Source of the DNA: Candidatus Cryptobacteroides sp. | Lineage (GTDB): Bacteria; Bacteroidota; Bacteroidia; Bacteroidales; UBA932 | Assembly (NCBI GenBank): GCA_045539115.1 | Contig: JAZQES010000075.1 | Coordinates: 46,015 to 110,014 of the forward strand | Reading direction: 5' to 3' | DNA length: 64,000 nt | In this document: positions 2 to 12,391 of the stretch, in pieces | Numbering within the stretch: position 1 is the stretch's first letter | Layout: each line of letters opens with the position of its first letter | The notes under the pieces: generated by a model | The model's database searches: none | Told to the model about the DNA's origin: nothing | What the model saw: the letters and a program-made list of their open reading frames with translations, nothing else | Position numbers and translations under genes: made by a program

Positions 2-718
2 GACATTCTTGCGGAAGTCGATGAACTTCGCAGCAGGATGACTCCGGAGTATGAACACAGGCTTGTCGAGAACATAATTGTCAGGACCCAGGGCTTCGTG
101 AGCGGCAATATCCGTGAGGATGACGAACATCCTGTCGAACTCTTCCGTCAACTTCTCTCGCTTTATGACGGAATCACAAAGGAAACCCTGCGTGAGAACA
201 TGCGTCATTTCCTTTCTGCGATAATGCCGGTGTGCGAGGAATGTGGAATGAACATGTGCGTACATCCTGACGACCCTCCTTTCCCTGTTCTGGGACTGCC
301 TCGCATCGTGACTTCGGATGAAGACATCGAATGGTTCCTGAATGCAGTGGACAATCCTCATAACGGTCTGACTTTCTGTGCCGGATCCTTGTCGGCAGGG
401 GCACATAATGATGTGACGGCTATGGCACTCAAATATGCCTCACGCACACATTTCGTTCATCTCCGTTCGTGCAGGATATTCGAAAACGGAGATTTTACCG
501 AAGCAAGTCATCTCGGTGGCAGAGCGGATATAGTAGAGTTGGTGAAGATCTTCGAAAAGGCCAACCCTAAATTGCCTATGCGTGTCGACCATGGAATGAC
601 AATGCTCGATGACGGGGAAAAAGGATATAATCCGGGCTATTCGTTCCTCGGCAGAATGTTCGCGATGGGACAGATCCAGGGGGTGATTGCTGCAGTTGAC
701 AAGGAACTGGGCTTGTAA
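2..718 (+). CDS. uxuA: Mannonate dehydratase, 5'-truncated by the window edge
   Basis: Frame is open from base 2 (DILAEVDELRSRM...). Contains the UxuA motifs MCVHPDDPP, GLPRIV, NGLTFCAGSL, HFVHLR, MRVDHG and PGYSFLGRMFAMGQIQG. Confidence 0.93.
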   Translation, partial: DILAEVDELRSRMTPEYEHRLVENIIVRTQGFVSGNIREDDEHPVELFRQLLSLYDGITKETLRENMRHFLSAIMPVCEECGMNMCVHPDDPPFPVLGLPRIVTSDEDIEWFLNAVDNPHNGLTFCAGSLSAGAHNDVTAMALKYASRTHFVHLRSCRIFENGDFTEASHLGGRADIVELVKIFEKANPKLPMRVDHGMTMLDDGEKGYNPGYSFLGRMFAMGQIQGVIAAVDKELGL

Positions 719-795: not shown

Positions 796-2262
796 ATGTA
801 TCTTCTAGGTTACGATATCGGAAGTTCGTCCGTAAAGGCGAGCCTCGTGGACGCACAGACAGGAAAATGCGTCTCATCTGCATTCTATCCTAAATCAGAA
901 GCGGCGATTCTCGCCGTAAAACCGGGCTGGGCCGAGCAGGACCCTGCATCATGGTGGGAAAATCTCAAACTTGCAACTGCCGACATCATGGCTTCATCAG
1001 GAGCGGATCCGAAAGACATCAAGGCTATCGGAATCTCATACCAGATGCATGGCCTCGTATGTGTGGACAAGGACCATAACGTCCTACGTCCTTCAATCAT
1101 ATGGTGTGATTCTCGCGCGGTTCCTTACGGCCAGAAGGCGTTTGATGAAATCGGTCATGAGGCATGCCTCTCGCATCTGCTCAACTCTCCGGGCAACTTC
1201 ACTGCTTCGAAACTTGCATGGGTGAAGGAAAACGAACCTGAACTTTATGCAAAGATCCATAAGATCATGCTTCCGGGCGACTATATCGCGATGAAGTTGA
1301 GCGGTGAGATCTGCACGACTGTCTCAGGCCTTTCAGAAGGAATGATGTGGGATTTCTCAGAAGGCAGGACTGCAAAGATGCTTCTCGACTATTACGGCAT
1401 AGATGAATCCCTCATTCCGGAGATCCGTCCGACATTTGCGGAGCAGGGAAGGGTGAATGCCGCTGCCGCTGCCGAATTGGGCCTTGCAGAAGGAACGCCT
1501 ATCACTTACCGTGCAGGTGACCAGCCTAACAACGCATTGTCACTCAATGTGTTCAATCCTGGTGAAATCGCTTCCACAGCAGGTACGTCAGGTGTCGTAT
1601 ATGGTGTGCTCGGCGAAGTGAACTATGATCCTAAGTCACGCGTCAACACATTCGCGCATGTCAACCATACTGCAGACCAGACACGTCTCGGTGTACTTCT
1701 CTGCATCAATGGAACAGGTATCCTCAACTCATGGATGAAGAGGAATGTGGCACCGGAAGGCATCTCATATGCAGAGATGAACGACCTTGCCGCCACGGCT
1801 CCTATAGGAAGTGCCGGCGTAAGCATCCTTCCTTTCGGAAACGGTGCCGAGCGTATGCTTGAAAACCGCGAGGTAGGCAGTTCGATCCATGGTGTGAACT
1901 TCAATGTACACAGCAAGGCTCATCTTCTCCGTGCCGCTCAGGAGGGAATCGTATTCTCCTTCAAGTATGGAATCGAGATCATGGAGCAGATGGGAATGAC
2001 TGTGAACAAGATACATGCAGGACATGCAAACATGTTCCTCAGCCCGATTTTCCGCGAGACTCTTGCAGGTGTCACCGGTGCTGTCATCGACCTCTATGAC
2101 ACAGATGGTTCTGTCGGAGCCGCGAAGGGTGCAGGCATGGGTGCCGGTATCTATAAGGACAACAACGAGGCATTCTCTACGCTTGAGAAACTTGCAGTGA
2201 TCGAACCTGCGGATACAGAGGCTTATAAGGATGCATACGAAGTGTGGAAATCCCGTCTGTGA
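796..2262 (+). CDS. xylB: Xylulokinase (FGGY family)
   Basis: LGYDIGSSSVKA, GISYQMHG, IIWCDSR, GDQPNNA and STAGTSG motifs; lies directly upstream of xylA. Confidence 0.93.
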   Translation: MYLLGYDIGSSSVKASLVDAQTGKCVSSAFYPKSEAAILAVKPGWAEQDPASWWENLKLATADIMASSGADPKDIKAIGISYQMHGLVCVDKDHNVLRPSIIWCDSRAVPYGQKAFDEIGHEACLSHLLNSPGNFTASKLAWVKENEPELYAKIHKIMLPGDYIAMKLSGEICTTVSGLSEGMMWDFSEGRTAKMLLDYYGIDESLIPEIRPTFAEQGRVNAAAAAELGLAEGTPITYRAGDQPNNALSLNVFNPGEIASTAGTSGVVYGVLGEVNYDPKSRVNTFAHVNHTADQTRLGVLLCINGTGILNSWMKRNVAPEGISYAEMNDLAATAPIGSAGVSILPFGNGAERMLENREVGSSIHGVNFNVHSKAHLLRAAQEGIVFSFKYGIEIMEQMGMTVNKIHAGHANMFLSPIFRETLAGVTGAVIDLYDTDGSVGAAKGAGMGAGIYKDNNEAFSTLEKLAVIEPADTEAYKDAYEVWKSRL

Positions 2263-2324
2263 TGTCATTCTGAGGAACGCAGCTTCTCTCTGTCATTCTG
2301 AGGAGCGCAGCGACGTGAGAATCT
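2263..2324. repeat. GTCAT-tagged REP-like doublet (truncated copy plus full copy)
   Basis: TGTCATTCTGAGGAACGCAGC (2263-2283) is followed by TGTCATTCTGAGGAGCGCAGCGACGTGAGAATCT (2291-2324), with a 28-nt period. Confidence 0.7.
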
Positions 2325-2366
2325 AATAAAAATATTATAAACCAATTAAATATCAATACTGAAACT

Positions 2367-3683
2367 ATGGCAACTAAAGAATTTTTCCCTGGTATCGGCA
2401 AGATCCAGTTTGAAGGCAAAGAAAGCAGAAACCCTATGGCTTTCCGTTACTATGATGCAAACAAGGTAGTCCTCGGCAAGACAATGGCAGAGTGGCTCAA
2501 GTTCTCTATGGCTTGGTGGCACACCCTCTGTGCAGAAGGCGCTGACCAGTTCGGCGGCGGTACAAAGACTTTCCCTTGGAACGGTGCAGAGTGTCCTGTA
2601 CAGGCAGCAAAGGATAAGGTTGACGCTGGATTCGAGTTCATGCAGAAGATGGGAATCGAGTACTATTGCTTCCACGATGTTGACCTCGTTGACGAAGGTG
2701 CAAATGTAGAGGAATATGAGGCTCGTCTTAAGGAAGTCGTTGCATATCTCAAAGAGAAGCAGGCTGAGACCGGCATCAAACTCCTTTGGGGAACAGCAAA
2801 CGTATTCGGCAACAAGAGATATATGAACGGTGCCGCAACAAACCCTGATTTCGACGTTGTAGCACGTGCTGCCGTACAGATTAAGAACGCAATCGACGCT
2901 ACAATCGAACTTGGCGGAACAAACTATGTGTTCTGGGGCGGTCGTGAGGGTTACATGAGCCTTCTCAATACAGACCAGAAGCGTGAGAAGGAGCATCTCG
3001 CAATGATGCTTACCCTTGCACGCGACTATGCACGCTCAAAGGGCTTTACAGGAACATTCCTTATCGAGCCAAAGCCGATGGAACCTACAAAGCATCAGTA
3101 TGATGTTGATACAGAGACTGTCATCGGTTTCCTTAAGGCTCATGGCCTTGACAAGGACTTCAAGGTGAACATCGAGGTGAACCATGCTACTCTCGCAGGT
3201 CACACATTCGAGCATGAACTCGCATGTGCAGTTGATGCCGGCATGCTCGGCTCTATCGACGCTAACCGCGGTGACTATCAGAACGGCTGGGATACAGACC
3301 AGTTCCCGATCGACTCGTTCGACCTTACTCAGGCTATGATGCAGATCATCCGCAACGGTGGCCTCGGCAACGGTGGTACAAACTTCGACGCGAAGACACG
3401 CCGCAACTCAACTGACCTTGAGGACATCTTCATCGCTCATATCGCCGCTATGGATGCTATGGCACGCGCTCTTGAAAATGCTGCCGCTCTTCTCGAAGAG
3501 TCTCCTCTCTGCAAGATGGTTGCCGAGCGTTATGCTTCATTCGACGAAGGTCTCGGAAAGAAGTTCGAGAACGGTGAACTCACTCTCGAGGAGGTTTACG
3601 CTTACGGTAAGGAAGTGAACGAGCCTAAGCAGACTTCAGGCAAGCAGGAACTTTACGAGGCAATCCTCAATATGTACTGCTAG
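2367..3683 (+). CDS. xylA: Xylose isomerase, class II (Bacteroides/Piromyces type)
   Basis: [45 protein letters not shown] and GWDTDQFP motifs; 438 aa. Confidence 0.98.
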
Positions 3684-3684
3684 T

Positions 3685-3733
3685 CGTCATCCCCCGCTTG
3701 ACACAACGTCATCCCCGGCTTGACCGGGGATCT
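3685..3733. repeat. CGTC-tagged REP-like doublet (truncated copy plus full palindromic copy)
   Basis: CGTCATCCCCCGCTTGAC (3685-3702) is followed by CGTCATCCCCGGCTTGACCGGGGATCT (3707-3733); the full copy has the stem ATCCCCGG/CCGGGGAT. Confidence 0.75.
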
Positions 3734-3747
3734 ATAATCCATAGACT

Positions 3748-5229
3748 ATGACAAACAATAATGACAAAGGCAGCAAGGGCTATCTCTTTTCGATAGTCCT
3801 TGTCGCCGTTATCGGAGGACTGCTTTTCGGATACGACACTGCAGTCATATCAGGTGCTGAGAAGGGTCTGCAGGCATTCTTCATGGGTGCCAAGGACTTC
3901 AACTACACCGACTTCATGCATGGCATCACTTCATCGAGCGCATTGCTCGGATGTATCATCGGTGCCGCGATTTCAGGAATCTGCGCTTCGAGAATGGGAC
4001 GTAAGAAATCCCTTATCATGGCGGGTGTCTTCTTCTTCCTTTCCGCTCTCGGATCATACAATCCTGAATTTCTCTTCTTCCCTAAGGGCGAGCCTTCATT
4101 CTCTCTTCTCATCGCCTTCAACCTTTACCGAGTGCTCGGTGGTGTCGGCGTAGGTCTTGCTTCTGCAATCTGCCCTATGTATATTGCCGAGGTGGCTCCA
4201 AGCAACCTCCGTGGAACACTTGTTTCGTGGAACCAGTTCGCAATCATCTTCGGCCAGTTGGTCGTATACTTCGTGAACTTCATTATCCTCGGTGACCATA
4301 TCGCACCTGCCATCCAGAAGGTTGCGGAAGGCATCAACCAGATCATGAATCCTGGTGAGGCACAGTGGATGATAGAGACAGGATGGAGATATATGTTTGT
4401 AAGTGAGGCAGTTCCGGCTGGTCTCTTCACTGCTCTTCTTTTCCTCGTTCCTGAGACTCCAAGGTACCTTGCGATGACAGGAAAGGATGATCAGGCCCTC
4501 TACATCCTCAGCAAGATCAACGGACAGAACAAGGCACAGGCTATCCTTGCGGAAATCAAGGAAACCGTATCCGAGAAGACAGAGAAACTCTTCACATACG
4601 GATGGCTTGTCATCTTTGTGGGAATCATGCTCAGCGTATTCCAGCAGGCTGTCGGCATCAATGCAGTCCTCTATTTCGCACCTCGTATATTCGAGTCGCT
4701 CGGTATGGGCAATCCTATGATGCAGACCGTGCTTATGGGTATCGTGAACATCACATTCACCCTCGTGGCCATCTTCACGGTGGAGAAATGGGGCCGCAAG
4801 CCTCTCCTTATCTGGGGATCGCTCGGTATGGCTCTCGGAGCAGCCGGCGTCGCCGTGACAAGTGTCGCTTCCGCTCTTCCTCCTGTTGTGGCTGTCATAA
4901 GCATCATGGTCTACAGCGCATCATTCATGTTCAGTTGGGGCCCTATCTGCTGGGTACTCATCTCTGAGATCTTCCCTAACACCATCCGTGGTGCAGCAGT
5001 TGCGATTGCAGTGGCATTCCAGTGGATCTTCAACTTCATCGTTTCTTCGACCTTCCTCCCTATGTACAACATGAGCCTCGGTAATATGGAGAATTTCGGC
5101 CATGCGTTCACATACGGACTTTACGGAGTAATCTGCATCCTCGCGGCCGTCTTCGTATGGAAACTTGTCCCTGAAACAAAGGGCAAGACCCTCGAGGATA
5201 TGTCAAGACTCTGGAAGAAAGACAAATAG
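3748..5229 (+). CDS. xylE: D-xylose:H+ symporter (MFS sugar porter)
   Basis: GGLLFGYDTAVISG, PMYIAEVAP, WNQFAIIFGQL, PETPR, FQQAVGINAVLY, WVLISEIFP and PETKGKTLE motifs; third gene of the xyl operon. Confidence 0.92.
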   Translation: MTNNNDKGSKGYLFSIVLVAVIGGLLFGYDTAVISGAEKGLQAFFMGAKDFNYTDFMHGITSSSALLGCIIGAAISGICASRMGRKKSLIMAGVFFFLSALGSYNPEFLFFPKGEPSFSLLIAFNLYRVLGGVGVGLASAICPMYIAEVAPSNLRGTLVSWNQFAIIFGQLVVYFVNFIILGDHIAPAIQKVAEGINQIMNPGEAQWMIETGWRYMFVSEAVPAGLFTALLFLVPETPRYLAMTGKDDQALYILSKINGQNKAQAILAEIKETVSEKTEKLFTYGWLVIFVGIMLSVFQQAVGINAVLYFAPRIFESLGMGNPMMQTVLMGIVNITFTLVAIFTVEKWGRKPLLIWGSLGMALGAAGVAVTSVASALPPVVAVISIMVYSASFMFSWGPICWVLISEIFPNTIRGAAVAIAVAFQWIFNFIVSSTFLPMYNMSLGNMENFGHAFTYGLYGVICILAAVFVWKLVPETKGKTLEDMSRLWKKDK

Positions 5230-5256: not shown

Positions 5257-5292
5257 GTATCCCGGCTATGGTACAATCCGCAGCCGGGATAC
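5257..5292 (+). terminator. Perfect 11-bp stem-loop after xylE (probable terminator)
   Basis: GTATCCCGGCT (5257-5267) pairs with AGCCGGGATAC (5282-5292); 14-nt loop; only a weak T-tract (TTATGTT). Confidence 0.5.
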
Positions 5293-5294
5293 TT

Positions 5295-5753
5295 ATGTTC
5301 AGAAGGTATGTAATTGTCATAATGGCCTCCATGATGATGGCCGCAGGACTGGCGTCGGCACAGACCCCTGTGGAGAAGGTCATTGTAAAATATGAAGATA
5401 CGGAAGGTGCGAGATATTTCCTCGCGCAAGGTGTGAAGATGGCATTTGCCAGAAAACTCATTCAGACCACCCAGATGGCTCCTATCGCGTCCGAGGTTGA
5501 TGAACTTGCGGTCCTGAAGATGGAGAATGCCCCTCAGTACACTCGGGTGAAGTTTGTTGTGGACCTGAATGATGCATTGAAATCATATGAGCATTACGGC
5601 AGACATGAAACGAAGAATGGAGATGTGGACATCTACATTCTTCGTTCAGGACCGGATTCGGTAGAGGAACTTGTCATCTACAATCCGGAAATATTTTCTC
5701 TCAACAGCCTGCACGGCAGTTTCACCGTCTCACAACTGTTGAAACTTGAATGA
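5295..5753 (+). CDS. Secreted hypothetical protein, DUF4252-like
   Basis: Signal peptide MFRRYVIVIMASMMMAAGLASA-Q; about 152 aa. The pattern of KYEDTEG, VDIY, VEELVI and LHGSF resembles DUF4252. Start moved from 5268 to 5295. Confidence 0.55.
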   Translation: MFRRYVIVIMASMMMAAGLASAQTPVEKVIVKYEDTEGARYFLAQGVKMAFARKLIQTTQMAPIASEVDELAVLKMENAPQYTRVKFVVDLNDALKSYEHYGRHETKNGDVDIYILRSGPDSVEELVIYNPEIFSLNSLHGSFTVSQLLKLE

Positions 5754-8300
5754 CGCGGTATATAATTCCCAACCGCAATGTTTCAGGAACCACTGAATGT
5801 CTCCTTCCGATATGCGTGGCTGTCTTTTGAGGATTTCAGGAAGATCGTTGTAGTTCTTCATGAATGCATCAGCGAGTTCTGCGGCCTTTTCAGGTGCATA
5901 CAGGATGGCCTCGTTGATGGTTCCCATCATTGCAAGGTCGTCGATAGGGTCGGCTCCTGTGCGGAACTTGAGTGCCTCAATGCTTCGTGCCATACGTCGT
6001 GAAAGACCTATGAGACCATCAGCGAGTGCCGGCTGGTCATCTGCATATGTGATGACTATGGTCTTTTCTGCAGAACAGTCTTCCACAGGAACGTCGATCA
6101 CGAATGCGAGACCTTCACCGAGATATTCGTAAGGAACATCCTCACCGTTTACAGATACGCTTGAAGGAACCTCGGAAGCGACAACCTTTACCTTGAACTT
6201 CCGTTCGGCAGGCATACCTTCGTAGGAACCCTTGCGAGGTGAGATCGTAACGGTCTGTGCGTTGCCGTTCCATCTGTTTGAAAGACATGTGGTTGCATAT
6301 GACTCAGCATAATCCTTGTCATTTCCGGCATCTTCGTACATCTTGAAATATCCTTCGCCGCCAGGGAATACGGTGACATAGATGTCTTCATCGTTGCTGT
6401 TGAGGTTCTCGACTTCGTCACCATAGAAAGGAAGAACTGAACCGGCCTTCACATATACACCATATTCGTCGAGTGCGAAATGTCGTGTCACGGTCTGTCC
6501 TCCTTCCAGCATTGTACCTGTATGGAGTTCATACCATCTTCCCTCAGGAAGCCAGATCTCCATCTCCGCGAATCCGTCAGTCATAGGTCTGGTGACAGGA
6601 GCGATGAGCATATCGTCGCCGAACATGTACTGGCTGCGGTATTTCACGTCATATGCTTCCTGACATTCAGGCCAGTCATAGTAAAGAGGGCGGCAGAGGG
6701 CTATACCTTCGTCATATCCCTTGCGGGCCATGGTGTAGATGTACGGTGCCATGTCATAGCGCTGACGCACGGTCTTGCGGATTACGTTGGTGTATTCTTC
6801 TGTGAATACCCATGGCTCCTTGTTGAGGGCTCCGCTCTTCGAACTGTGGGTACGCATTACAGGGCTGAATCCGCCGTACTGCAACCACCTTGTGTACATT
6901 TCAGGATCGATGCTGTCACCGAGATGGCCTCCGATGTCGTGGCTCCAATATCCGTAAAGGACATTCGATGCCGTAGAGGTGAAATATGGCTGGAATTCAA
7001 GAGATTTCCATGTGATTGTGGCATCTCCGGAGAATCCGATCTGATAACGGTGGTTTCCGAGTCCGCCCCAACGATAGTAGAGAAGAGGACGCTTGTCGCC
7101 GTTACGGTCCATGTCGCTGAAATAGCAGTAATTTATCCACCAGGTGTTATGGAGACCTGTCAGTTTCGTGTCATAAATATGCTGCTGCCAGTCCAGCCAC
7201 CAGAAATCCACTCCTTCTTTCTGCATAGGATGCATGACCTGCTCGAACATCTTAGTCATGAATTCCTTGTCGGAGTTGATCCATTCGATACGGTCCTTTG
7301 AGGCAGGGTCCTTACCCAGACTTTGAGCAAGGGCAGGGTAGCACTCTTCCCAGTGGTCAAAGCCTTCCGCCGGGTGAAGGTTCAGTGTCACTTTCAGACC
7401 TTCATCTTTCAGATATTCCATGAATCTGCCAGGATTCGGGAAAAGACTCTTGTTCCATGTCCATCCTGTCCATCCTCCGCGGCCTTCGTCAGTATAATGC
7501 CAGTCCATATCCACGACAAGCACATCGAGAGGAATGTCATAAGCATGGAACTTGTCCACCAGAGTTCGCATTTCCTTGTCTGTATATGCCCAGTAGCGGC
7601 TCCACCAGTAACCGAAAGTGAAACGCGGCGGCAGAGGCATCTTGCCTGCAAAGACAGTAAAGTCTTTGAGAGCGGCCTTGTAGTCATGTCCGTATGCCAT
7701 GAAATACCAGTCCTGGCAATCCTTCGACTCTCTTTCCTTCACCCACGCCCAGTCGGAATCATCGAAAAGAAAGTTTTCAGATTCGTCGATGAGTGTCCAT
7801 CCGTCACGTGAGAGGATACCGTCTTCAAACTGGCGTATTTCGCCTTTCTTCATGTCTGAAACCCATCCCTGGGCCTGAAGATCGCCGTCAAGACCGTCCA
7901 GAGTGCGGAATGTACCTTTCAGATTCTCCTTCTGCTTCATTCCCGGTTTCCATGTGAAGAAACCTTCATTTGACTTGATGGTGAGGTTGTTTGAAGTGAA
8001 CTTTCCGCTTCCTATATTATAGGAGAGAGTCATCTTTGAGGTCTCGATCTTGAGATTCCTGCCCGTCTTCCTGACCTTGAAGTCCACCTCAGGATAGTTT
8101 CGTTCTGAAGCAACGAAAGAAGGGGAGTCGGTGAACCTTCCTTCAGGTTCCCATTCAAGTCTGATGACACCGTCTGTGATCACAGTAAAACGTACTGTGG
8201 CATCCTGATAAGCCACATTCTGATTTGTCTGTGCCGACAGGCCTGCCGCAAGAAGCAGAAACAGCGCACAGAATGCCGATCTGATCATGTTTATCTTCAT
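5730..8300 (-). CDS. Secreted glycoside hydrolase family 31 (GH31_u1-like clade) with DUF5110-type C-terminus
   Basis: Signal peptide; GYWWSRY, DVLVVDMDWH, nucleophile region VDFWWLDWQQ, acid/base region IGFSGD, WSHDIGG and QYMFGDDMLIAP. Confidence 0.9.
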   Translation of the reverse strand: MKINMIRSAFCALFLLLAAGLSAQTNQNVAYQDATVRFTVITDGVIRLEWEPEGRFTDSPSFVASERNYPEVDFKVRKTGRNLKIETSKMTLSYNIGSGKFTSNNLTIKSNEGFFTWKPGMKQKENLKGTFRTLDGLDGDLQAQGWVSDMKKGEIRQFEDGILSRDGWTLIDESENFLFDDSDWAWVKERESKDCQDWYFMAYGHDYKAALKDFTVFAGKMPLPPRFTFGYWWSRYWAYTDKEMRTLVDKFHAYDIPLDVLVVDMDWHYTDEGRGGWTGWTWNKSLFPNPGRFMEYLKDEGLKVTLNLHPAEGFDHWEECYPALAQSLGKDPASKDRIEWINSDKEFMTKMFEQVMHPMQKEGVDFWWLDWQQHIYDTKLTGLHNTWWINYCYFSDMDRNGDKRPLLYYRWGGLGNHRYQIGFSGDATITWKSLEFQPYFTSTASNVLYGYWSHDIGGHLGDSIDPEMYTRWLQYGGFSPVMRTHSSKSGALNKEPWVFTEEYTNVIRKTVRQRYDMAPYIYTMARKGYDEGIALCRPLYYDWPECQEAYDVKYRSQYMFGDDMLIAPVTRPMTDGFAEMEIWLPEGRWYELHTGTMLEGGQTVTRHFALDEYGVYVKAGSVLPFYGDEVENLNSNDEDIYVTVFPGGEGYFKMYEDAGNDKDYAESYATTCLSNRWNGNAQTVTISPRKGSYEGMPAERKFKVKVVASEVPSSVSVNGEDVPYEYLGEGLAFVIDVPVEDCSAEKTIVITYADDQPALADGLIGLSRRMARSIEALKFRTGADPIDDLAMMGTINEAILYAPEKAAELADAFMKNYNDLPEILKRQPRISEGDIQWFLKHCGWELYTASFKFQQL

Positions 8301-8302
8301 AT

Positions 8303-9535
8303 TTACTCTATGTTTAGCATGAATGCTTCAAATATTTCCTTATGTGCTCCCGAGAATACGATGTGGTGGTTGCCGACAGGATTCTTCAGGAAATATTCCG
8401 TACATGTCTCCTGAGGATTCTCCTTGAGTCTGAGGTTGATCTGCGTGCGGCAGAGGTCGTTTTCGTACTGGTTGGAAAGAAGGTCCGCTTCGGTACAGAA
8501 ACTTCTGCCCAGGTCGCCGGACACTTTGAATATGGTAGCGTCTCCGACAGGCATTTCGCCGTGAACGGCCACTCCTATGCCGGATTCGAAATGAGTGTTG
8601 AACGAGCGGCTGAGGACCATATTGAACGGAATCGTGCAATGGGCCAGAAGCAGTTCACCTGTCTGGGGATCGATGCGAGATGGGTTTGCCTGGAAACCGC
8701 ATCTGCCGGTAAGAGCCTGACCTATGGTCATTGTCAGCAGGGCAGGAACATCTCCCTCGCATCCTGACGGTATGCCTTCGGAATTGAGCATCGCCAATGC
8801 AAGACAGCCGGTGTTTCCTACGCTGTCGAGCAGGTCGAAACAGCGAAGGGTCAGGCCGGACAGGTTATATCTCGTTACGATATTCTTCAGGGCTACATAT
8901 ATCTTCAATGCTCCTTCTGCATATTTCCTGACGGCTTCGGAAGCATTCTCTTCAAGTTCCTTCCTGATTGCCCGGACCTCATGAGGATATGTGTCCAACT
9001 TGCCGGTTTCTTCAACCAGTTCCTGTATGTTTATGTCAAGAAGGTTGATTCCCAGTTTTTCCTTTACGGCCTTCTTGTCGGCATCGCTCGAAATAAGCCA
9101 GTCAGACGGCTCGCCGATGATGCCCAGGTTCTTGCCGTTCAGAGATTTTCTGGCCTCCGAGACCTTTGCAAGCACATTTATCCTTTCCGAAATATAGGAA
9201 ACGCTGCCGTGCAGGATCTCGCCCTTGCATCCCTGCTGGTTGAGGTACGAAATGATTTCAAGCGAAGCCGCAAGTGAATTGCTCTTGCCCGATGTCAGCA
9301 GCAGGATATTGCCGTCAAGTGTAGGAAAGATCTCTTTGAAGAGCCCTTCTGTTCCTCCGGTGCGGACGAATATGATGTCGAGGTCGCTTTCTCCATATCC
9401 GGAAAAGTCATTTCCCCTGAAATCAAATCTGATTCCAAGCGAATCTTCGATTTCACTGATGAATGCCCCTGAAACAGCATTTACTGCCGCTTCATCATGC
9501 AGGGGAGAGGTGAGGGTATATAAGGCTATGTTCAT
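8303..9535 (-). CDS. L-fucose/L-arabinose isomerase-like protein (410 aa, specificity unknown)
   Basis: Putative metal-ligand motifs RCFDL, GCEGDVPA, LAHCTIP and GNHHIV are ordered as in the AraA/FucI superfamily; no signal peptide. Confidence 0.7.
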   Translation of the reverse strand: MNIALYTLTSPLHDEAAVNAVSGAFISEIEDSLGIRFDFRGNDFSGYGESDLDIIFVRTGGTEGLFKEIFPTLDGNILLLTSGKSNSLAASLEIISYLNQQGCKGEILHGSVSYISERINVLAKVSEARKSLNGKNLGIIGEPSDWLISSDADKKAVKEKLGINLLDINIQELVEETGKLDTYPHEVRAIRKELEENASEAVRKYAEGALKIYVALKNIVTRYNLSGLTLRCFDLLDSVGNTGCLALAMLNSEGIPSGCEGDVPALLTMTIGQALTGRCGFQANPSRIDPQTGELLLAHCTIPFNMVLSRSFNTHFESGIGVAVHGEMPVGDATIFKVSGDLGRSFCTEADLLSNQYENDLCRTQINLRLKENPQETCTEYFLKNPVGNHHIVFSGAHKEIFEAFMLNIE

Positions 9536-9544
9536 AGGTCAAAG

Positions 9545-12391
9545 TTAGGAATTAATTCTGATTTCCTGAATCACGATGCCCGGATCGAGGAAATAAATGC
9601 GGAGCATGTGCTTTCCTGCCTTTGCCGCCCGAGCCTCCATTGTGCGGAACGAGTAACCCCGAAGGACATTCTTTCTCCATTCTGCCGAGAAGTCTTCTGT
9701 GTGTATCGAGAACACTTCTGCGTCATTGTCGTCGAGTCTTGCTGCATATCTGGCATCCCTTCCTTCATATACATGGAGGGTCGGCAGAGTACGGATTTCT
9801 ATCTGATTGTATCCCTCCTTCAACTCTATTTCATACTCCACATAAGGGGCTTCTTCCAGTTGCCCGGTCTCATATGACGGAGTATCGAAAGGCTGTACCA
9901 GCACTCCGTCCGAGAATCCGAGTTGCTCGATGACTGTCACCTTTCCATCTTCGCTGTCATGGCTCCGGATGAATGATTTTGCCGGAATGATGCAGTCAGG
10001 ATCGTCATGGAACGGCGGATATGTACCGAGATATATGCGGTCAATGCGTGCATCTGGTTTAAATTCTGTTATTTTGAGACGGTTTTCTCCCTCTTTCAGG
10101 CTTATGGTTCCGACCTTGCTCCACATAGGTCCAACGTATGGGGCGTGCCATATGTTGTTGATAGGAGTTGCGGAAGCGATGAACGATGCATCACCCACAC
10201 TTACACGGCAGAATTCATTGTCAGCCGCCGCTTTTGAGAAATTCCTGATAGGGGTGAGGGCTTCAATCCATACAGGGATTTCGCCTTCGACTTCAGAGAT
10301 GATGAGTGCGCCTTCTTCTTTAAATGCATCTTCATGTGAGACGAACCTTGCAGAAGGCCCCTTGCTTGCCTTTTCGATCAGTCCCTCCGTGCATACAGGT
10401 GCATCCATGTTCTTTGAACGGTACCAGTGGTATGGCTGCCATGAGAAGAATTCATCCCATTTGCCTCCAAGCAGTTCCTTATTGTAAAGCCGGGTCCACT
10501 CGTTGAGTTCGTGGTATGCCTCTTCAGCCATTCTGGCATCTTCCATGGCCGCTCTGTCGTCAATTCCGACGTTTGCAAGGCTGCGACGGGCAAGCAACTG
10601 GTATCTGTTCAGGAGTGATGCGCCTCTGACCGGATATAGGACGAGTTCGAAGTATGCAGGCAGGAGAGATTCTTCGATCTTAGAAGCGAGCGTAAGCGCC
10701 CTTTCCTCTATGTCTTTATATTCTTTCAGACGTCTGACTATATCTCCGGTGGTATAATCGATGAAATAGACATGGGAATCTTTTCCTGATGCCATCAGAT
10801 GATAGTATATCTTCTGAATGTCTGCTATTTCCTTTCCAGCCTTCTTCCCGAATATGCGCGAGGCCCACTGTTCAATGTAATTATGTGCGTTTTCCGGTTT
10901 CCATCTGTCAATGTCCCATGCAAGTTCCATTGCAAATGACAGTTCCTTTTCTGCCGGCTTGATGTCTCCCACATTGAAAACCCATATCTTCCTTGCCCCG
11001 AAGGTATATGCCTTTGTGAGTTCGGTGGAAATGAATGCGGGCGAAAGGGGACTCAGCCAGATCCAGCTTGCAGGATCGCCGTGGTATGACAGATGATAAT
11101 ATATTCCTGCCCCACCTTTGCGTTTCTGTTCCTCAGGATTGCAGAGATTGCGGGTATGTCCGTGCTTGTCATCCGACCACATAAGTGTTACATCTTCAGG
11201 AACATCCAGGCCGTTATGATAAGCGTCCAGTACCTCTTCATATGTGCATAGCATCTGCGGTACTTCCTCCACAGGGGCATCGACGTTACGACGGATTATG
11301 TCTCGCTGGTCATCGATGGATTTCTGCATGAGTGCAGTACGTTCCTCGGTGGTACGGGCCCCTTCCATCGGATAATCATGGATACCGCGCAGGCCGAGGG
11401 TGTAGATGTTTTCAAAACCTCCGTTGGTCTTTACTCTCGCCTCCCAGTAGTCGATCATGGTCTGACGGTTGGTGATATAGTTGAAATCTCCATATGTACC
11501 GACATTCTTCCACTCGTCCTCGTTGTTTCTGAGCATCTGTTCGCAGTGTGACGTTCCCATCACTATGGCATATTCGTCCGCAAGACGTGCATTCTCCGGG
11601 TCTCCGTTGAATGCCTGTGTTCCGTTATGCATCGCTGGCCATAACAGGTTGCCTTTAAGGCGTAGAAGGAGTTCGAATACCTTCTGATAAGTCTTCGGAC
11701 CGACCTTGCCGCTTTCTTTGTCGAAGTTCCGTTCAGCCCAAAGTGACCATCCACCGAATCTCTCGTCATTGATGAATATTCCGCGATATTGAACCGAGGG
11801 CTCTCCCTGAATAAAGCATCCCGGCTCGATGTAGAGCGCTTTGCGTGGCTGCGGAGTCACGTCGGCCCACCAGTACCATGGGGAAACTCCGATGGCTTCG
11901 CTGAGTGTTGTCAGTCCATAAGCCGTTCCTCTTCTGTCACTTCCTGCTATCACAAGGACAGGACTGTCGTGTTCCGGAAGTCTGATGGTAGTTATTATGC
12001 ATGACTCCCATCTGCCTTCTATTCCCGAAACGTCTATGAGGCCTTTATCCGCAAAACTATCGATTAACCGGCTATGTCCTACAGTTCCGGCAATTATTGC
12101 AGGAGTGTCGGAGATACTTTCTGTTTCACCGCATTCAATTACTTCCGGACGCATCCCGGTGATTCTCTCCACATCGTCAGCGAGCATACCGGATGCGATT
12201 CTCACGACAGGGTAGTCCTCATTGTCCAGAATTATCTGTGCCGGTTTCTCACCGGCCAACGGGAACCAGCCTTTCTCCGGTGATTCCGCAATTTCAGGAA
12301 ATATCCTGTCTGTATCCTCCTTTACGGAAGTGCAGTTTATGATAGTAAGAATAGCGGCCAGGACTGCTATCAGTCGGATGATCTGTTTCAT
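9545..12391 (-). CDS. Glycoside hydrolase family 115 (alpha-glucuronidase-like), probable lipoprotein
   Basis: IAGSDRRGTAYG, GVSPWYWWAD, YRGIFINDE, LLRLKGNLLWPAMH, GTSHCEQMLRN, WSDDKHG, GIYYHLSY and NVGDIKPAE motifs; candidate lipobox IINC. Confidence 0.92.
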   Translation of the reverse strand: MKQIIRLIAVLAAILTIINCTSVKEDTDRIFPEIAESPEKGWFPLAGEKPAQIILDNEDYPVVRIASGMLADDVERITGMRPEVIECGETESISDTPAIIAGTVGHSRLIDSFADKGLIDVSGIEGRWESCIITTIRLPEHDSPVLVIAGSDRRGTAYGLTTLSEAIGVSPWYWWADVTPQPRKALYIEPGCFIQGEPSVQYRGIFINDERFGGWSLWAERNFDKESGKVGPKTYQKVFELLLRLKGNLLWPAMHNGTQAFNGDPENARLADEYAIVMGTSHCEQMLRNNEDEWKNVGTYGDFNYITNRQTMIDYWEARVKTNGGFENIYTLGLRGIHDYPMEGARTTEERTALMQKSIDDQRDIIRRNVDAPVEEVPQMLCTYEEVLDAYHNGLDVPEDVTLMWSDDKHGHTRNLCNPEEQKRKGGAGIYYHLSYHGDPASWIWLSPLSPAFISTELTKAYTFGARKIWVFNVGDIKPAEKELSFAMELAWDIDRWKPENAHNYIEQWASRIFGKKAGKEIADIQKIYYHLMASGKDSHVYFIDYTTGDIVRRLKEYKDIEERALTLASKIEESLLPAYFELVLYPVRGASLLNRYQLLARRSLANVGIDDRAAMEDARMAEEAYHELNEWTRLYNKELLGGKWDEFFSWQPYHWYRSKNMDAPVCTEGLIEKASKGPSARFVSHEDAFKEEGALIISEVEGEIPVWIEALTPIRNFSKAAADNEFCRVSVGDASFIASATPINNIWHAPYVGPMWSKVGTISLKEGENRLKITEFKPDARIDRIYLGTYPPFHDDPDCIIPAKSFIRSHDSEDGKVTVIEQLGFSDGVLVQPFDTPSYETGQLEEAPYVEYEIELKEGYNQIEIRTLPTLHVYEGRDARYAARLDDNDAEVFSIHTEDFSAEWRKNVLRGYSFRTMEARAAKAGKHMLRIYFLDPGIVIQEIRINS

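Follow-up and report, generated by a model that had tools for sequence, protein, structure and literature searches.

L-Arabinose isomerase (AraA) carries a catalytic and metal-binding tetrad that, in the E. coli numbering, consists of E306, E333, H350, and H450, and the catalytic pair of L-fucose isomerase (FucI) is said, in work by Seemann and Schulz from 1997, to be Glu337 and Asp361. For SftI, isomerization of sulfoquinovose to sulfofructose has been demonstrated, as has that of F6P to G6P (PMC7491151); the enzyme is homologous to FucI, and a model shows its Mn ligands to be conserved (PMC9594981). The protein analyzed here, P0001, is encoded in a stretch of 64,000 nucleotides from Candidatus Cryptobacteroides sp. 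(referred to below as the window). Its gene is real, and its product is a small, confidently folded relative of the arabinose, fucose, and sulfoquinovose isomerases. What is new here is a family, large and unstudied, in which a familiar scaffold bears a remodelled catalytic set.

The P0001 gene and its surroundings

The first-pass annotation described a cytoplasmic protein with RCFDL, CEGD, AHC, and NHH motifs, lying between a GH115 and a GH31 gene. All four motifs are present, at residues 231-235, 259-262, 298-300, and 389-391, respectively, and are invariant or nearly so in 363 homologs; the N terminus (MNIALYTLTSPLHDE...) shows no signal peptide, which is in line with a cytoplasmic location, and Pfam confirms the identity of both flanking genes (Table 1). 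The GH115 gene, which is upstream, ends 9 bp from the P0001 gene, and the start of the GH31 gene follows 2 bp downstream. The P0001 gene is almost certainly cotranscribed with both; contigs from animal-gut RNA libraries span the three genes and bridge both junctions, which fits transcription as a unit but does not prove it.

TABLE 1 Features of the window and key residues of P0001
Feature	Position	Strand	Remarks
xylB	796-2262	plus	Pfam/NCBIfam
xylA	2367-3683	plus	Pfam/NCBIfam
xylE	3748-5229	plus	Pfam/NCBIfam
xylB-xylA-xylE unit	796-5229	plus	xylose uptake and catabolism; convergent with the GH31 gene
161-aa ORF	5268-5753	plus	follows xylE; signal-peptide-like N terminus; overlaps the convergent GH31 3' end by ~24 bp
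GH31 glycosidase	5730-8300	minus	Pfam; classical signal peptide
P0001, isomerase-like gene	8303-9535	minus	uninterrupted ORF, 410 aa
GH115 alpha-glucuronidase	9545-12391	minus	Pfam; lipoprotein signal
P0001 key residues, N-terminal part	TGGTE 59-63, N86, PSDW 143-146		
P0001 key residues, middle	C232-F233, C244, C259-E260-G-D262, N284		
P0001 key residues, C-terminal part	H299-C300, H315-F-E317, C362-R363-T-Q365, N389-H390		

The closest solved relative of the GH115 enzyme is BtGH115A (5by3), and judging by this nearness its product would be (methyl)glucuronate. The GH31 enzyme is closest to the alpha-xylosidase 7wj9 (E 1.4e-139) and would, on the same grounds, release xylose. It scores 172 bits with the alpha-xylosidase model versus 88 bits with PRK10426, which we take to be a YihQ-type model. 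Xylose freed by an alpha-xylosidase is already covered by the xylB-xylA-xylE unit.

The genome assembly (2.73 Mb, 90% complete) encodes no AraA and no FucI (the FucI model TIGR01089, with a cut-off of 850 bits, has no match anywhere in it), no class II aldolase/epimerase (PF00596), and no FGGY kinase scoring as a ribulokinase, the only FGGY matches being the XylB of the window and one protein on contig 42. P0001 therefore has no classical arabinose or fucose route to feed. The lack of arabinose and fucose pathway partners, at first noted for the window, thus extends to the whole genome, as far as a 90% complete assembly can show. The isomerases that were found include XylA, UxaC, PGI (622 bits), two PMI-domain proteins, RpiB, and NagB. 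With all of these present, no gap was found for P0001 to fill as a stand-in for a missing standard isomerase, and the products expected from its neighbors are already served, xylose by XylA and glucuronate by UxaC.

The same genome encodes a second AraA/FucI-like protein, unrelated to P0001, of 487 aa (contig 24, L001:877-2340, minus strand), which shows weak matches to Fucose_iso_C, AraA, and SftI and has Glu at the position of N284 in P0001. Its gene is directly downstream of one for an MFS transporter of the D-galactonate (anionic sugar) type.

Fold, family, and active site

The AlphaFold model of P0001, built on 112 diverse homologs, has a pLDDT of 97.4 and a pTM of 0.94. Foldseek matches it to AraA with a TM score of 0.78-0.80 (E ~1e-20). 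VIA-align superposes it on E. coli AraA (2ajt) with a Z score of 31.0 and an rmsd of 3.8 A over 406 of the 410 residues, and on FucI and D-arabinose isomerase with Z scores of 27-29, the next unrelated matches being at Z 9. At the fold level, this whole-chain superposition places P0001 in the AraA/FucI superfamily, so that the kinship first proposed holds for the entire fold, and the model indicates a compact form of all three AraA/FucI-fold domains. A PDB search with the single P0001 sequence returned chance matches only, and a family profile was required to reach AraA. In the Pfam scan, AraA_central alone was found, at 19.1 bits, under its cut-off of 24. The top NCBIfam match is the SftI model NF048012 (62.2 bits, E 3.8e-17; cut-off 700), and the AraA equivalog NF002795 gives 15.8 bits against a cut-off of 622.

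In a maximum-likelihood tree, which has long outgroup branches, the P0001 family is monophyletic (100/98) and is sister to three SftI-like proteins (88/79), apart from AraA. It is a distinct, widespread family, an offshoot of the short (430-470 aa) SftI/SqvD-type isomerases, and the changes that define it are the replacement of Asp by Asn at 284, the new E317, the C362-R363-x-Q365 motif, the TGGTE loop, and PSDW. A search of 5.8 billion proteins found at least 8000 homologs (clusters at 90% identity), without Pfam domains and mostly unnamed, and an exhaustive search against 50%-identity representatives yielded 2124 clusters at E values up to 0.001, 546 of them below 1e-30 and nearly all 385-430 aa long. 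Prevotella-type bacteria of the rumen and gut commonly carry the family, as do B. finegoldii and Ignavibacteria; among sampled genomes, it occurs in 26 of 200 Bacteroidales species as well as in Ignavibacteria, and sampling of the other Bacteroidota orders yielded no member. It is, in short, a large family from anaerobic gut and sediment bacteria.

In one clade of Bacteroidales, family members of 885-909 aa (P0271 to P0274) are fused in frame to the C terminus of the 23S rRNA methyltransferase RlmD. These fusions form four clusters at <90% identity, and no other fusion partner was found; RlmD is not a neighbor in any of ~110 other loci, and the fusion is probably a local event.

Conservation was counted in 363 full-length homologs, which are 26-98% identical. 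Seven residues (C232, F233, C244, C259, N284, H299, and E317) are found in all 363; E260, D262, C300, C362, N389, and H390 are kept in 361-362, and R363 and Q365 in 360-362. The hhalign profile alignment to AraA (93.7% probability) pairs F233 with F279, E260 with E306, D262 with D308, and H299 with H350. In local alignments, H390-H391 coincide with the "HH" of AraA at 449-450, and of the two only the first His is invariant in the family. Counterparts of E306, H350, and the HH are thus in place, and that of E333 is absent: this second catalytic/metal carboxylate of AraA aligns with A283-N284. In the column shared by AraA E333 and FucI D361, the three SftI-like proteins have Asp, whereas P0001 and 363 of 363 family members have Asn. 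With the second carboxylate missing in every member, the classical two-base ene-diol mechanism cannot run unchanged. The AraA/FucI-type metal and catalytic set that had been proposed for P0001 is therefore kept in E260, D262, H299, H390, and F233 and broken at the E333/D361 position.

We see an even chance that P0001 is an aldose-ketose isomerase that depends on a metal and has a remodelled active site; its substrate may carry an anionic group. In such an enzyme, E260, H299, and H390 would bind a divalent metal at a mononuclear site, N284 would be the fourth, neutral ligand, and aldose and ketose would be interconverted through a metal-stabilized ene-diol. The Asp/Glu-to-Asn change at position 284 would remove a base, whose role might then pass to the invariant E317, possibly aided by H315, while R363, Q365, the TGGTE loop, and N86-S87 may hold the anionic group of the substrate, be it phosphate, carboxylate, or sulfonate. 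An anionic substrate is suggested by analogy and by the conserved Arg, Thr, and Gly residues, and the idea fits the turnover of 6-sulfo-glucose and glucose-6-phosphate by SftI. An uncharacterized aldose-ketose isomerase had also been the initial reading of this gene; it agrees with the activity of the closest characterized kin, of the SftI/SqvD type, and is strained by the loss of the second catalytic carboxylate.

Alternatively, the scaffold might have been recruited elsewhere, as an epimerase or dehydratase working through the cysteines or E317, as a redox or Fe-dependent enzyme, or as an inactive sugar binder. We consider this somewhat unlikely. The universal change to Asn at a catalytic position and the appearance of new invariant residues (E317, C362, R363, Q365, and TGGTE) would suit such a role, as would the restriction of the family to Bacteroidales and Ignavibacteria among the Bacteroidota orders sampled and its stable fusions to RlmD in one clade. 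However, the rest of the ligand set is intact, and RlmD does not recur beside the gene at other loci. The five invariant cysteines had raised the prospect of an Fe-S cluster or oxygen-sensitive chemistry. This is weakened by the finding that four of them, C232, C244, C259, and C300, are common to the P0001 family and the SftI-like isomerases of Listeria, Deinococcus, and Zymomonas, so that they represent a clade trait and no mark of oxygen-sensitive chemistry; moreover, SftI purified by ordinary means was active (PMC7491151). It is quite unlikely that Asn284, Glu317, and Cys362-Arg363-x-Gln365 signify a switch of chemistry to a reaction new for the AraA/FucI fold, such as one that epimerizes or dehydrates an acidic or phosphorylated sugar, which would serve as a stand-alone step in anaerobic Bacteroidales and Ignavibacteria.

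Gene neighborhoods and the flanking hydrolases

The gene context was compared in 111 loci, 77 from named genomes of rumen and gut Prevotella and Bacteroidales, 19 from other Bacteroidales families, and 15 from Ignavibacteria. No partner is conserved across these loci, and no kinase, aldolase, or transporter partner was seen in the gene context. No codirectional neighbor lies close to the gene in 34 of these 77 loci from Prevotella and Bacteroidales. The codirectional neighbors (n = 75) represent 88 Pfam families, and further nonredundant immediate neighbors (n = 134) represent 197, with no family found more than four times in either set. Adjacency to GH115 was seen in this window only among the loci compared. 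In the closest relatives (L053, L054, and L056), the gene order is grpE-dnaJ-tRNA, the isomerase-like gene, and GH31, followed further on by xylE and xylA, and the pairing with GH31 is seen only in these close relatives, at 70-86% identity. The pair thus reflects genus-level synteny, and GH115 varies between lineages. Elsewhere, hemicellulase genes adjoin the isomerase-like gene in two loci (L082 and L086), where it follows GH10, and in one clade (L068), where it comes last in a SusC/D-GH31-GH127-unknown gene series; such adjacency in CAZyme-rich genomes is not clearly above chance.

The arrangement of GH115, P0001, and GH31 genes is recent and local, so the two hydrolases probably do not define what the family acts on. 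In L053, L054, and L056, the isomerase-like gene lies a few hundred bases from the small ORF on the tRNA side, and solely in the window is GH115 found between the tRNA and that gene. In one DNA-type run, contigs break at positions 8285 and 8340, at the junction of the isomerase-like gene with GH31. These breaks suggest strain-level rearrangement at the locus.

These comparisons bear on the view, put forward in the first-pass annotation, that P0001 isomerizes a sugar freed by GH115 or GH31 (for example, 4-O-methyl-glucuronate, glucuronate, or a pentose for XylB) and so supplies a missing step in the catabolism of hemicellulose side chains. We regard this as very unlikely. The three genes do form a tight operon, but it contains no matching transporter for hydrolases that are secreted, and the GH115 member of the operon is peculiar to this window, the three closest relatives having only GH31 after the grpE-dnaJ-tRNA genes. 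Glucuronate is indeed a 6-carboxy analog of the 6-sulfo and 6-phospho sugars that SftI converts (PMC7491151), but the genome already encodes UxaC for it, as it does XylA for xylose. The few loci with GH10 or with GH31 and GH127, along with a GH31 gene near the Deinococcus SftI-like isomerase, likewise speak for a hemicellulose link, against the solitary position of the gene in many close loci and the scatter of its immediate neighbors over Pfam families. The homologs largely lack a carbohydrate context, the idea of a missing hemicellulose step is weakly supported, and P0001 is unlikely to supply the step that has been sought for hemicellulose side chains, 4-O-methyl-glucuronate included.

Comparison with known isomerases

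That P0001 is a plain short isomerase of L-arabinose, L-fucose, or sulfoquinovose is highly improbable: some family members are named "fucose isomerase" or "L-fucose isomerase-like protein" in databases and the fold matches, but the equivalog scores fall far under the cut-offs and set P0001 apart from SftI and, as first suggested, from the standard AraA and FucI; the genome lacks a ribulokinase, a class II aldolase/epimerase, and a canonical araA or fucI gene, AraA occurs in 4 of 26 carrier genomes, near its background of 44/201, and the neighboring GH31 is nearer to alpha-xylosidase than to PRK10426. Replacement of AraA was rejected on the same counts, since the family neither tracks nor avoids AraA, and AraB and AraD are absent here. 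A sulfoquinovose pathway was likewise set aside, as the adjacent GH31 is not YihQ-like; the P0001 operon contains no sulfoquinovosidase, DUF4867, transaldolase, transketolase, or kinase-aldolase genes, and a published rumen sulfoquinovose study makes no mention of Bacteroidales. A search of the genome for DUF4867 gave no match, but neither did the control genomes.

Databases leave the family blank or call its members "fucose isomerase" without evidence; the B. finegoldii protein of that name, which came up in a tblastn of plasmid records, is a true family member, with 37% identity to P0001. Finding what the family converts would correct a widespread misannotation and could reveal how an isomerase mechanism tolerates the loss of one catalytic carboxylate.

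Compared with FucI and D-arabinose isomerase (1fui, 3a9r), P0001 has the same superfamily fold; however, FucI has ~590 aa with extra N-terminal elements, whereas P0001 has 410 aa, no class II aldolase was found in its genome, and the Glu and Asp catalytic pair of FucI is reduced to Glu and Asn. The likeness to AraA (2ajt, 4f2d, 4r1p) extends over the whole chain and includes counterparts of E306, D308, F279, H350, and the "HH." Nevertheless, P0001 is only 11-15% identical to AraA and ~90 residues shorter, an 18-residue stretch of AraA that includes the NQTAHG segment has no counterpart in it, and its genome encodes neither of the AraA partners, AraB and AraD.

Annotated relatives of the SftI type, which came from tblastn searches of plasmid records, are found in Listeria, Deinococcus, and Zymomonas and reach 104-288 bits with the SftI model. 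In Listeria monocytogenes (L182, 4004-13086), a 467-aa SftI-like isomerase is encoded with a LacI regulator, a split transketolase, an FGGY kinase, PTS IIBCA, and a DUF4038 protein, an operon that presumably resembles the D-apiose transketolase route in outline. On plasmid pDEIPE01 of Deinococcus peraridilitoris (L184, 2253-11680), the SftI-like isomerase is accompanied by an ABC transporter, a PfkB kinase, a tagatose-bisphosphate-type aldolase, and a GH31 enzyme, as well as an AEC exporter and a succinate-semialdehyde-type dehydrogenase, and the operon looks like a sulfo-EMP-style pathway. Its GH31 scores higher with the alpha-xylosidase model (482 bits) than with PRK10426 (241 bits). The Zymomonas gene adjoins those for a class II aldolase and an aldose epimerase.

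P0001 differs from SftI in being 20-60 residues shorter, in having no sulfoglycolysis, kinase, aldolase, or transketolase partners, and in carrying Asn for Asp at 284; E317, C362-R363-x-Q365, TGGTE, and PSDW set its own family apart. C232, C244, C259-E-x-D, H299-C300, and the conserved His recur in the proteins of Listeria, Deinococcus, and Zymomonas, which have Asp in place of N284. The likeness to SftI/SqvD (NF048012, ~430-470 aa) is seen in the top family model, the sister position in the tree, and the compact three-domain architecture, and the features that P0001 has in common with the SftI-like proteins comprise R/Q-C-(F/W), the Cys at 244, C-E-x-D, H-C, and the C-terminal His.
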